64,000 nucleotides of DNA from a plasmid. Shown here one piece after another: positions 6,001 through 9,000 of the stretch. Location: assembly GCF_988243305.1 (NCBI RefSeq), contig NZ_OZ547137.1, one strand, 5' to 3'. A program made the position numbers. The number at the start of each line of letters is the position of its first letter. Position 1 is the stretch's first letter.

Positions 6001-9000
6001 GCAAAGAAAATACTTTGGCGTTATTCTCCACATTTTCAAATGATTGGGCATGCGCAAAAGTAAAAACACTTAATGCTATAGCTATTGTTGAAACTATTCT
6101 TCGAATCTTCATCGCTATCACTTGGACTTGAACTTGAACTTGAACTTGAACTTGAACTTGAACTTGAACTTGATTATATAAAGACTCAAATCATATAACG
6201 CTAAAAAAATAGCAATATTTAACATATTTCAATCTTCTAACACTAGGATTCCGCCCCCATTTTCTCCAAAAATTACACTTTTCGCATAAAGATAATTATT
6301 TATCATGTTATTAGCTAGGCCGTCCCGGAAATCCTGGAAACTAAACGCCCTGAAAGAGGTAAATAGGATGACGAAAAATACACGTTTTCCCCCGAAGTCC
6401 GTTAAGGGGATGTGGACGATTTCCTGAACCACGGCAGCCTGGAGGCTGCAAATCGGGGTGTGGCAGAATATGAGCTTTCAGAGTAACCATCCAGAATGAG
6501 TTCCCATGTCACACAACCTGAAGCACCAGAATGGTGAAAGAGGTTCTGAAAGCCGTCGCCAGAGCCAATAATCCCCCTTATCAGTCCGTATTTGCAGACT
6601 TTATCGCCGGTCATCCCTCCTGCACGGTCTGTTTCTGGGAAACCTTCCACAAAATGTACCCGGATTCACCGTACGAATACGTCACGTTCTGCCATACCTG
6701 CCGTCGTTTTGTATTTATACGAAACAGAAGCGGAGATGAAGGCGGATGACCCGAAGTGGTGGTGATTTTCAGCCTCGTCCGCTGAAATGCTGGCTGACCG
6801 AAGACGAAATCAGGGCCGTTCTTGATGCGGTGCGCGATGCAGTATGCAGTGTCAGTTGCCGGGTGGCAGAAGATGGGGGTTCGCGCCCATTTACTCCCAA
6901 AGTCTCACCTTGCTTATGTAATTAATTGAATTTATTTAGAAAACGTTGCAATTTTAGCATCATTTTTTATTGTTCTTTTTAACCTGAAGTACGTCGATCG
7001 AGAGATACCTGTTTTTTCTGTCACACTGCCCAGAGATTCTCCCTGTGATATAAGCTCCAACGCTGTAGGCGTTCGTGGATGCTTCTTCCTGCCAAATTTT
7101 ACGCCTGCGGCAAGTGCCGCTATTCTTCCGCCGTTTGTCCGCTCCAGAATACGCTCACGTTCCGCTTCAGCTACAGCAGCAAGGATTTGGATAACCATTT
7201 TGCCCATTGTCCCTTCTGTACTGAGACCGTTCTCCAGGAACCGGATGGCGATCCCCTTTTTGTAACAGCTATCAACCACACGGATCATGTCAGCAGTGTT
7301 ACGCCCCAGTCGGTCCATTTTTGTACAGATGATTACGTCGTCTTTCTCTGCACGGGCCAACAACCGCTGTAGTCCTTCCCGTTCATCAGTTGCGCCAGTC
7401 ATAATATCCGTAAAAATACGATCTTCCCGTACCCCGGCATTTTTTAGCTCCGAGATTTGATGTGCTAAGAGAGAGACTTTTGGAGGAAATGGGCGCAGAA
7501 CCCCATAATGGTGCGCCGCAGAGAGCCTGCTCACTGATACCATGCACAGCGGCGGCCTGCGCCCCGATGGCGACCGTGGGCTTCAGTCTGGTTTCAAATA
7601 CCACCTGACCGGACGCATCGGTCAGGCCGTTGTTTGCCGATCGTTGCCAGGCCGGTTTTCCTTCGCCTGCCACTGATTATGCTGAGCAGGAACTGGATCT
7701 GAACAGCTATTGCATCAGCAGACCTGCAGCCACCTTCTTTCTGCGCGCCAGCGGTAAATCGATGAACCAGGCTGGCGTGCAGAATGGTGATCTGCTGGTA
7801 GTGGACAGGGCCGAAAAACCACAACACGGGGACATCGTTATCGCTGAGATCGACGGTGAGTTCACCGTCAAACGACTGCTGTTGCGCCCACGCCCGGCAC
7901 TGGAGCTGGTTTCAGACAGCCCGGAGTTCCGCACACTGTATCCGGAAAACATCTGTATTTTTGGTGTTGTCACTCACGTGATACACAGGACGCGGGAGTT
8001 ACGCTGATGTTTGCACTGGCTGATATCAACAGTTTCTACGCCTCATGTGAAAAAGTTTTCCGCCCGGACCTTCGCAACGAACCGGTCATCGTACTCAGCA
8101 ATAACGATGGCTGTGTGATCGCGCGCAGCCCGGAGGCAAAAGCCCTTGGCATCAGAATGGGGCAGCCCTGGTTTCAGGTGAGACAAACGCGCCTGGAGAA
8201 GAAAATACATGTATTTTCCAGCAATTATGCGCTATACCACAGCATGAGCCAACGGGTTATGGCTGTTCTGGAGTCGCTTTCTCCCGCAGTTGAGCCCTAC
8301 TCAATTGATGAAATGTTCATTGATTTGCGGGGGATAAATCATTGCATCTCTCCGGAGTTTTTTGGTCATCAGCTCAGGGAACAGGTAAAGAGCTGGACAG
8401 GACTCACCATGGGGGTGGGCATTGCGCCTACAAAAACGCTGGCTAAAAGTGCACAGTGGGCAACAAAGCAATGGCCACAGTTTTCCGGTGTGGTCGCGCT
8501 GACGGCAGAAAACCGTAATCGGATCTTGAAGCTACTGGGGCTGCAGCCAGTTGGTGAGGTCTGGGGAGTAGGACGCAGACTGACGGAAAAGCTGAATGCG
8601 CTGGGTATTAACACAGCACTGCAGCTGGCGCAGGCGAACACGGCATTCATCCGGAAAAACTTCAGCGTCATTCTTGAGCGTACGGTACGCGAACTCAACG
8701 GCGAGTCCTGCATATCCCTGGAAGAAGCACCACCGGCAAAACAGCAGATTGTCTGTAGTCGCAGTTTTGGTGAACGAATCACAGACAAAGATGCCATGCA
8801 CCAGGCTGTTGTTCAGTATGCTGAGCGGGCCGCAGAGAAACTACGTGGGGAGCGTCAGTATTGCCGCCGCATGCAGAGCCTTAAACCATGTCTGGCGTGA
8901 AGGGTACCGCTATATGAAGGCAGGAGTCATGCTGGCTGATTTCACACCATCGGGTATAGCGCAGCCGGGATTATTTGATGAAATCCAGCCCCGTAAAAAC

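Follow-up and report, generated by a model that had tools for sequence, protein, structure and literature searches.

Transposons of the Tn3 subgroup carry divergent tnpR and tnpA genes with the recombination site res between them. The resolvase TnpR binds res, thereby repressing tnpA and tnpR, and a single Tn3 inverted repeat (IR) is enough to make a target replicon immune to transposition. Transposition has been demonstrated for non-autonomous Tn3-derived elements with 38-bp IRs, which range from 262 to 3892 bp and in one case carry a resolvase gene together with res (PMC4133298). Intact copies of an unnamed Tn3-family transposon of approximately 3.9 kb were found on plasmids of E. coli, E. 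albertii and Salmonella, as exemplified by NZ_CP045713.1 (68743-72642). This element is arranged in the order IRL, tnpR (leftward), a 156-bp res region, tnpA (rightward, 1012 aa) and IRR, with tnpR and tnpA divergent and res between them. Its resolvase corresponds to WP_001196199.1 (193 aa, start MALLGYARVSTSHQKLTHQISELK) and its transposase to WP_086218989.1 (1012 aa, gene of 3,039 bp), which is annotated by PGAP as a generic "Tn3 family transposase". A full tnpR divergent from a Tn3-family tnpA, with GGGG… repeats at both ends, is present in NZ_CP045713.1, NZ_CP082930.1 and NZ_CP049202.1, and the IRR of the intact elements lies just past the tnpA stop (Citrobacter copy L005, 4313-4348; also NZ_CP045713.1 and NZ_CP082930.1). 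The Citrobacter relative, which is 85% identical, is flanked by a perfect target duplication of 5 bp, TTATT.

Positions 6875-7504 of the window, the whole stretch of 64,000 nucleotides of plasmid DNA that was analyzed, very probably represent the shell of a small transposon of the same family, an ordinary dead relic rather than a frameshifted resolvase gene, because the transposase gene and the recombination site have been lost, as has the catalytic beginning of the resolvase. The features of the locus are as follows.

6875-7504, no strand: whole relic (630 bp), an internally deleted Tn3-family transposon consisting of IRL, truncated tnpR and IRR, delimited by blastn against the intact element.
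6791-6874, plus strand: left flank, a fragment of a plasmid leading-region gene (hypothetical or YubG family), based on an 85-bp BLAST match at 6791-6875.
6875-6912, plus strand: IRL, 38 bp, GGGGGTTCGCGCCCATTTACTCCCAAAGTCTCACCTTG, start uncertain by 1 nt (6875 or 6876), homologous to the IRL of intact elements.
6932-7464, minus strand: truncated tnpR, codons 18-193 plus stop of a 193-aa resolvase, based on alignment to WP_001196199.1, Pfam and PDB.
6932-7543, minus strand: chimeric 203-aa ORF with ATG at 7543, publicly labelled 'recombinase family protein'.
7463-7464, no strand: deletion joint, with TG common to tnpR (…GATGTG/TTAGC…) and the sub-terminal right end (…TTTATG/CTAAGAG…), based on three-way comparison.
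7467-7504, minus strand: IRR, 38 bp, outer GGGG at 7504, GGGGTTCTGCGCCCATTTCCTCCAAAAGTCTCTCTCTT; 7463-7504 is the counterpart of the final 42 bp of an intact copy.
7505-7629, minus strand: right flank, roughly codons 124-165 of a 282-codon plasmid gene for a 3'-5' exonuclease (DnaQ-like), an internal piece cut at both ends.
7627-8007, plus strand: 5'-truncated umuD/impA, codons 20-145, based on alignment to the IncI impC-umuD-umuC-stbB-parM locus and on Pfam Peptidase_S24 (E 7.9e-26).

In blastn searches, positions 1-593 of the intact element (NZ_CP045713.1, 68743-72642) matched window positions 6875-7467 with 98.5% identity and positions 3859-3900 matched 7463-7504 with 97.6% identity, the two segments overlapping at 7463-7467, and no match to positions 594-3858 was found anywhere in the 64-kb window. 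A three-way comparison likewise showed that identity between the window and intact tnpR ends at 7464 and then restarts with the last 42 bp of the element. Judged from these alignments, the break is a 3,270-bp internal deletion joined at TG. This single event, with a 2-bp TG microhomology, took out tnpR codons 1-17, res and all of tnpA, and brought tnpR from codon 18 onward up against the terminal 42 bp of the transposon, IRR included. In addition, the parent TnpA (1012 aa) gave no tblastn match in the window at E <= 0.01, no tnpA DNA was detected there by blastn, and the 156-bp tnpR-tnpA intergenic (res) region of the parent was absent from the 64-kb window (blastn). The retained part of tnpR comprises the 3' 533 bp; the missing codons 1-17, MALLGYARVSTSHQKLT, include Tyr6, Arg8 and Ser10, and the motif G[YF]xR[VI]S[TS] occurred in none of the six frames of the window. 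A resolvase-mediated deletion at res was ruled out, since the joint lies inside the tnpR coding sequence (codon 17/18) and not in the intergenic res, as was the insertion of a second transposon into tnpR, since the inner IR end abuts tnpR and the outer GGGG abuts exonuclease DNA.

An inverted-repeat search revealed terminal repeats of the GGGG type and of approximately 38 bp, with 34-nt arms that were 85% complementary, and the IR pattern had two matches in the window versus none expected. The IRL has counterparts in NZ_CP045713.1, NZ_CP082930.1 and the Citrobacter element, and differs from that of NZ_CP045713.1 at three positions. The left and right flanks of the relic are two unrelated plasmid genes, the left one described by PGAP as 'incomplete; missing N-terminus and C-terminus' and the exonuclease fragment flagged as an incomplete pseudogene. 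Positions 7503-7629 (127 bp) are 97.6% identical to the pCERC4 gene for WP_001057989.1, and the fragment reads GLTDASGQVVFETRLKPTVAIGAQAAAVHGISEQALCGAPLW in its own frame, a peptide present in the full exonuclease protein. A target-site duplication was sought and none was found, the 5-bp flanks being AAGAT and ATAAT. Insertion of the relic as a unit into the exonuclease gene was ruled out, given that another gene forms the left flank and that no target duplication is present; the mismatch of the flanks is most likely due to later rearrangements beside the transposon, for example deletions or recombination between copies. According to the initial annotation, the sequence upstream of the resolvase gene ran directly into the truncated umuD at about 7606. 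A truncated umuD does indeed lie nearby, but it is separated from the resolvase gene by 42 bp of transposon end (7463-7504) and by the fragment of the exonuclease gene (7503-7629), and umuD homology begins only at 7627. The joint between exonuclease and umuD has CCG common to both sides (7627-7629), and compared with the intact IncI locus, impC (DinI-like), which would lie upstream, is absent together with the region 5' of it.

The 203-aa ORF was located on the minus strand at exactly the coordinates first reported (6932-7543). Its codons 1-13 (7543-7505) stem from exonuclease-gene DNA translated in a non-native frame, codons 14-27 (7504-7463) come from the right end of the transposon, and codons 28-203 encode TnpR residues 18-193. 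The resolvase core, originally placed from about residue 25, was recovered from residue 26 by the Pfam profile PF00239 (Resolvase; E 1.9e-31, 109.5 bits with a cut-off of 23.3, ORF residues 26-148 against model positions 16-144/145 only) and likewise by gamma-delta resolvase 1gdt (E 5.7e-44, ORF 26-188 against chain 16-178), and a match to 5cy1 was also obtained (E 1.5e-42). The loss of the catalytic N-terminus noticed at the outset agrees with these profile and structure-database matches, all of which begin at family position 16, and the N-terminal beta-1 with Ser10 and Arg8 (motif GYxRVSTxxQ) is not present in the ORF. In AlphaFold2 runs with equally shallow alignments for both proteins, residues 1-20 of the ORF had pLDDT values below 50, with no beta-1 strand and no residue at or above 90, compared with a strand at residues 3-9 (pLDDT ~86) and 40 residues at or above 90 in intact TnpR. 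At the C-terminus, helices were predicted at ORF 158-202, and the HTH_7 match (E 0.0088, 16.6 bits) stayed below the Pfam cut-off of 23.8, with the gamma-delta alignment reaching residue 178. Since beta-1, Arg8/Ser10 and a cognate res in the window are all missing, the product is predicted to be unable to resolve cointegrates or plasmid multimers, and the ORF should in all likelihood be regarded as an inert pseudogene or transposon remnant. The only promoter-like match near the ORF is weak (9/12). Relative to intact tnpR, the window copy shows the nonsynonymous changes M37I, D128G and Y192S and one synonymous change, and the O104:H4 pAA has R121C in place of D128G. Residues 37, 121 and 128 are invariant in intact copies that are 15% apart in DNA. 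Taken together, the relic lineages have four nonsynonymous changes (M37I, Y192S, and D128G or R121C) versus one synonymous change, very small counts that we take in favor of relaxed constraint on the tnpR relic.

The initial annotation regarded the locus as a complete tnpR whose N-terminus had been shifted into another frame, with res remaining upstream. Such an interpretation can draw on the resolvase match starting only at about ORF residue 26 and on an upstream peptide in another frame, …AIGAQAAAVHGISEQ…, that loosely resembles …LGYARVSTSHQ…. However, no frameshift emerged from the three-way alignment, in which tnpR homology stops sharply at 7464 and is followed by the transposon right end, and tnpR codons 1-17, absent from the entire 64 kb, were removed by deletion. 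The supposed degenerate serine segment, …VAIGAQAAAVHGISEQAL…, is the native frame of the 127-bp exonuclease fragment, 97.6% identical to known genes, and this out-of-frame peptide is most likely what had been taken for the serine motif. Moreover, similarity to the missing N-terminus in any frame was at the level of shuffled sequences, the best local alignment over the three upstream frames scoring 24 (shuffles 19.4 +/- 3.1, with 52 of 500 as high). The search for upstream res subsites that had been suggested found none, and at the DNA level the missing 5' tnpR and res shared just one 12-mer with 7465-7800. This 12-mer, TGCATGGTATCA, which the res region of the parent has in common with the exonuclease fragment, was seen in 1 of 1000 shuffles; we consider it a chance match because uninterrupted exonuclease sequence surrounds it and because it was picked out only post hoc. 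What holds of the proposed old Tn3-family res/tnpR scar is thus a decayed tnpR relic without the active-site serine, but not a surviving res, and there is next to no chance that a frameshifted complete gene underlies the locus. A full-length in-frame resolvase from an alternative start exists in form only: the frame of the ORF is uninterrupted from ATG 7543, and upstream it is kept open only by read-through of the right repeat and the out-of-frame exonuclease fragment. It is nevertheless annotated as an intact recombinase by PGAP, it keeps Asp67, Arg68, Arg71, the E-helix and a putative C-terminal DNA-binding region, and both MAFFT and tblastn are able to place its Arg6 and Ser8 opposite the catalytic Arg8 and Ser10. 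That the 203-aa or the 188-aa ORF would be a functional resolvase with a novel chimeric N-terminus in which Arg6/Ser8 by luck stand in for Arg8/Ser10 nevertheless seems extremely improbable. The MAFFT placement requires the intact sequences to be gapped by 12 residues (the ORF is 10 residues longer), and a proline-rich ORF stretch of 12 residues faces this gap between Ser and helix A. The N-terminus itself consists of out-of-frame exonuclease DNA and repeat DNA, its alignment score is no better than chance, and AlphaFold2 gives it a pLDDT of ~30 without beta-1, whereas the intact protein has a confident strand. Nonsynonymous drift including R121C and D128G in the E-helix region, and a window without a res site, also speak against a working enzyme.

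Two further alternatives concern the relic as a unit rather than its ORF. The 630-bp unit might be a live non-autonomous element of the TIME/MITE type that is mobilized in trans by the parent TnpA. As in TIMEs, Tn3-type IRs are found at both ends and there is no transposase gene; both terminal repeats are kept in the correct inverted orientation, and there is precedent in Tn3-derived non-autonomous elements for which transposition is reported (PMC4133298). In addition, the deletion spares the right terminal repeat almost exactly (42 bp kept), which is tidy for a random deletion and counts against a dead relic; such an endpoint would fit selection for a still-mobilizable element. However, neither the 5-6-bp direct duplication nor the copies in different contexts that characterize TIMEs were found, the flanks are unrelated and lack a 5-bp target duplication, the IRL carries three changes relative to an intact IRL, and there is no parental tnpA in the window. 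There is no res either, and therefore any cointegrate would depend on RecA. The tnpR::IRR joint was present in 22 of 72,556 plasmid records, the identical 22 accessions covering the whole 1.7-kb context, and a 910-bp context including the joint was present in 35 of 5,426 complete E. coli genomes. In neither the plasmid nor the complete E. coli genome collection did the joint occur outside the pAA context, so that further copies of the joint give no sign of TIME-like mobility, and mobility of the unit is unlikely. Alternatively, the relic could be kept for a residual activity, either as a Ser-less TnpR fragment acting as a res-binding repressor or dominant negative, or through IR-based target immunity of pAA. 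The putative C-terminal DNA-binding region, which aligns with gamma-delta resolvase to residue 178, the largely intact IRs, and the Tn3 IR immunity and TnpR repression via res described above are compatible with this proposal. In contrast, nonsynonymous changes predominate in the relic, HTH_7 remains at 16.6 bits under the cut-off of 23.8, the native promoter in res is deleted with one weak promoter-like site nearby, and loss of the central beta-1 probably destabilizes the catalytic domain, so that retention for residual activity appears very unlikely. That the relic is not fully dead in one way or another, be it TIME-like and mobilized by its parent, conferring immunity on pAA through its IRs, or supplying a Ser-less TnpR as a res-binding decoy, has only a slim chance. 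An ordinary dead relic is therefore the reading we retain.

The 1.7-kb region is 100% or 99.8% identical to pAA-type plasmids, including the pAA of E. coli O104:H4. Identity of 100% to CP051693.1 and CP056358.1 applies over 6400-8100 only, and outside this interval the window differs from CP051693.1. The genes aggD and aggC adjoin the relic region. From its sequence, the host replicon is an enteroaggregative E. coli pAA virulence plasmid, and we infer that the module would be an inert scar within a mosaic region bordered by the AAF/I fimbrial operon on one side and the imp/stb backbone on the other. Our literature search found nothing on this transposon remnant, and its biological weight is small, as it adds just another decayed mobile-element scar to the mosaic part of a virulence plasmid that is already well studied. 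Its value lies in annotation. In public records, that of the O104:H4 pAA included, the ORF is presented as intact, under the name "recombinase family protein" and with two different start sites (WP_302310849.1, 203 aa, and WP_032159540.1, 188 aa); PGAP treats it as a normal protein and not as a pseudogene. Since it has neither a catalytic serine nor a res site, a pseudogene flag would be appropriate, and the ORF should not be counted as pAA multimer resolution. In addition, the joints tnpR::IRR (7463/7464), IRR::exonuclease (7504/7505) and exonuclease::umuD (7627-7629) are possible markers of the pAA-type lineage.

Among known systems, TIMEs and other Tn3-derived non-autonomous elements, including IS101, resemble the relic by their two 38-bp Tn3-type IRs, small size and lack of a transposase gene (PMC4133298; PMC13367494). 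However, the TIMEs described have 5-6-bp duplications and show mobility or multiple copies (PMC4133298), whereas the relic has no duplication and a single context. Likewise, IS101 is described as retaining a functional res (PMC4133298; PMC13367494) and one Tn3-derived element as carrying a resolvase gene plus res (PMC4133298), while the relic has a truncated tnpR and no res. With the Tn3 and gamma-delta (Tn1000) resolvases (1gdt, 5cy1), the ORF shares a serine-recombinase catalytic domain, the E-helix and probably the C-terminal DNA-binding region, and the parent TnpR is identical to gamma-delta resolvase at 89 of 183 residues, with the start MxLxGYARVSTSxQ in both. In contrast to these proteins, the window protein begins only at what corresponds to residue 18, so that beta-1, Tyr6, Arg8 and the nucleophile Ser10 are missing, and there is no res substrate for it. 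Relative to the unnamed ~3.9-kb parent transposon, 3,270 bp are missing from the window copy (codons 1-17 of tnpR, the res region of 156 bp and the whole 3,039-bp tnpA) and the flanks of the copy do not match, but it is 98.5% identical over the retained 593 bp (IRL and the 3' part of tnpR) and 97.6% identical over the last 42 bp at the IRR end, with equal repeats and tnpR orientation.

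The open reading frame (ORF) at 6932-7543 (-) encodes 203 aa, and the resolvase core recognised in the initial annotation is genuine, with matches to the Pfam Resolvase family (PF00239; E 1.9e-31, from model position 16, i.e. ORF residue 26) and to the gamma-delta and Tn3 resolvase structures (E 5.7e-44 and 1.5e-42, respectively, both from residue 16). The absence of the catalytic N-terminus was likewise borne out, as the matches begin only at these positions. A full-length tnpR with 98.5% identity occurs on other plasmids and encodes a 193-aa resolvase (WP_001196199.1; N-terminus MALLGYARVSTSHQKLT-HQISELKN…). 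In these intact records tnpR is divergent from a Tn3-family tnpA encoding a 1012-aa transposase, with a 156-bp intergenic (res) region between them, in a unit of ~3.9 kb with GGGG… terminal repeats at its ends. When the intact element was compared with the window by blastn, element positions 1-593 and 3859-3900 matched 6875-7467 and 7463-7504, respectively, while positions 594-3858 had no match anywhere in the 64-kb window. Since these two pieces are collinear and share a TG at the joint (7463/7464), what remains is a 630-bp shell, and the supposed frameshift is in fact an internal deletion of 3,270 bp, which removed tnpR codons 1-17 (with Tyr6, Arg8 and the catalytic Ser10), res and the whole of tnpA. 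No match to TnpA was found in the window by tblastn, and no GYxRVST-type motif in any of its frames.

Features of the relic and its flanks
6791-6874 (BLAST match 6791-6875, 85 bp): left flank, piece of a leading-region gene, annotated as hypothetical or YubG family
6875-6912: left terminal inverted repeat (IRL), part of the 630-bp shell
Middle of the shell, between IRL and the element's right end: retained tnpR codons 18-193
Right end of the shell: last 42 bp of the element, including the right terminal inverted repeat (IRR, 7467-7504)
7504-7463 (-): chimeric ORF codons 14-27, transposon repeat end
7543-7505 (-): chimeric ORF codons 1-13, exonuclease-gene DNA, out of frame
Outside IRR: right flank, piece of an exonuclease gene

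The serine segment that had been placed in another frame could not be upheld, as the upstream frames scored 24 against the true TnpR N-terminus, a similarity at chance level (shuffles 19.4 +/- 3.1; 52/500 as high), and the DNA directly outside IRR (7503-7629) matches 127 bp from the interior of a plasmid 3'-5' exonuclease gene at 97.6% identity. Read in its own frame this fragment, an incomplete pseudogene according to PGAP, gives GLTDASGQVVFETRLKPTVAIGAQAAAVHGISEQALCGAPLW, a peptide also present within the full 282-aa protein. When the ORF N-terminus MVSVSRLSAAH is set against LLGYARVSTSH of intact TnpR (MAFFT, tblastn), Arg, Ser and His agree by accident; beyond this point 12 gap positions have to be opened in the intact sequences, facing a proline-rich stretch of the ORF. 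In AlphaFold2 models built from equally shallow alignments, ORF residues 1-20 were unstructured (pLDDT ~30) and lacked the beta-1 strand, while intact TnpR had a confident strand at 3-9 (pLDDT ~86); 40 residues of intact TnpR reached a pLDDT of at least 90, compared to 0 in the ORF. A 12-mer, TGCATGGTATCA, at 7533-7544, 30 bp outside IRR, also occurs on the opposite strand in the res region of the intact transposon in NZ_CP045713.1 (L006 4640-4795). Noticed post hoc and seen in 1/1000 shuffles, it forms part of an unbroken run of exonuclease coding sequence (…VHGIS…), and its sharing is probably due to chance.

The neighbouring umuD is indeed truncated, but the resolvase does not run straight into it, as the exonuclease fragment precedes the umuD/impA homology, which starts at 7627 (codon 20 of 145) with a CCG common to both. 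The upstream gene impC is gone. The truncated umuD/impA ORF (7627-8007), which has 125 codons and a TTG start codon at 7630, opens ~8 residues ahead of a putative Ala-Gly self-cleavage site (…CQA|GFPSPA…), assigned by homology with MucA and LexA. Its product would thus resemble UmuD' and be nearly pre-cleaved, but impC is missing, and so are the upstream control region and a functional umuC. Directly upstream of its start, within the exonuclease fragment (7604-7626, +), lies a terminator-like hairpin of 9 pairs (CCTGACCGGACGCATCGGTCAGG, then a T-rich tail), a type whose regional count was not above that of shuffles. In umuC/impB (8007-9135) 116 bp are deleted between two TATTGCCG direct repeats (joint 8859-8866), shifting the frame. 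This segment is still present in three other pAA (enteroaggregative E. coli virulence) plasmids (CP051693.1, IAL7250 pAA and L010); in IAL7250 pAA, the one among them for which pseudogene annotation was available, umuC is already called frameshifted with an internal stop (PGAP).

Over 6400-8100 the window matches the E. coli plasmids CP051693.1 and CP056358.1 at 100% identity and O104:H4 pAA plasmids at 99.8%. The neighbouring genes to one side are aggC and aggD, which belong to the AAF/I fimbriae, and to the other umuD-umuC-stbB-parM. Among 72,556 plasmid records this arrangement is complete in only 22, and the tnpR::IRR joint is carried by exactly these 22 accessions; a 910-bp context that includes the joint is present in 35 complete E. 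coli genomes. Further towards aggD, ~6425-6790 has ~94% identity to sequence whose annotation on other plasmids reads hypothetical protein and IS91-family transposase, and in which PGAP sees a hypothetical pseudogene with a frameshift. At 6246-6313 there is one more Tn3-family end, the third, which matches the final 68 bp (tnpA 3' end and IRR) of this transposon family at 81% identity and points its degenerate outer end (6246) towards aggD; it is what is left of a further copy that has diverged more. From 6200 to 7630 the sequence is pieced together from gene fragments throughout. Starting 8 bp before the aggD ATG (6112, -), a hexanucleotide array, (ACTTGA)x9 at 6120-6173, varies in its number of perfect copies, with 8 in the window, 7 in CP051693.1, 10 in IAL7250 pAA and 13 in O104:H4 pAA-09EL71; situated in the leader of the AAF/I operon, it could modulate expression or be phase-variable.

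We infer that the ORF product cannot recombine DNA and that the 630-bp unit is an inert scar. Mobilisation in trans, target immunity mediated by the inverted repeats and DNA binding by the truncated protein all have a low probability. Neither the 22 plasmids nor the 35 complete genomes gave any sign of movement of the mini-element. The gene's own promoter region, res, fell within the deletion, and upstream there is only one, weak, promoter-like match. The 5-bp flanks of the relic differ (AAGAT vs ATAAT), most likely through later rearrangements beside the transposon; an 85% identical Citrobacter element has a perfect 5-bp target duplication (TTATT). Compared with intact copies, three substitutions in the relic (M37I, D128G and Y192S) stand against a single synonymous change, and the O104:H4 pAA relic has R121C in place of D128G, with positions 37, 121 and 128 constant between intact elements differing by 15% in DNA; these substitutions, small in number, fit drift.

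In public records the relic is nevertheless listed as an intact "recombinase family protein", either of 203 aa from ATG 7543 (WP_302310849.1, one RefSeq record) or of 188 aa from a CTG codon at 7498 (WP_032159540.1 and QJG60686.1, other records), with no pseudogene flag in either form, an annotation that is inconsistent and misleading. The relic itself is an ordinary finding of an already known kind. TIMEs are a described class of non-autonomous Tn3-derived elements (PMC4133298, PMC13367494), which the 630-bp unit resembles in its IR-only architecture, but from which it differs in having no target duplication and no sign of mobility.
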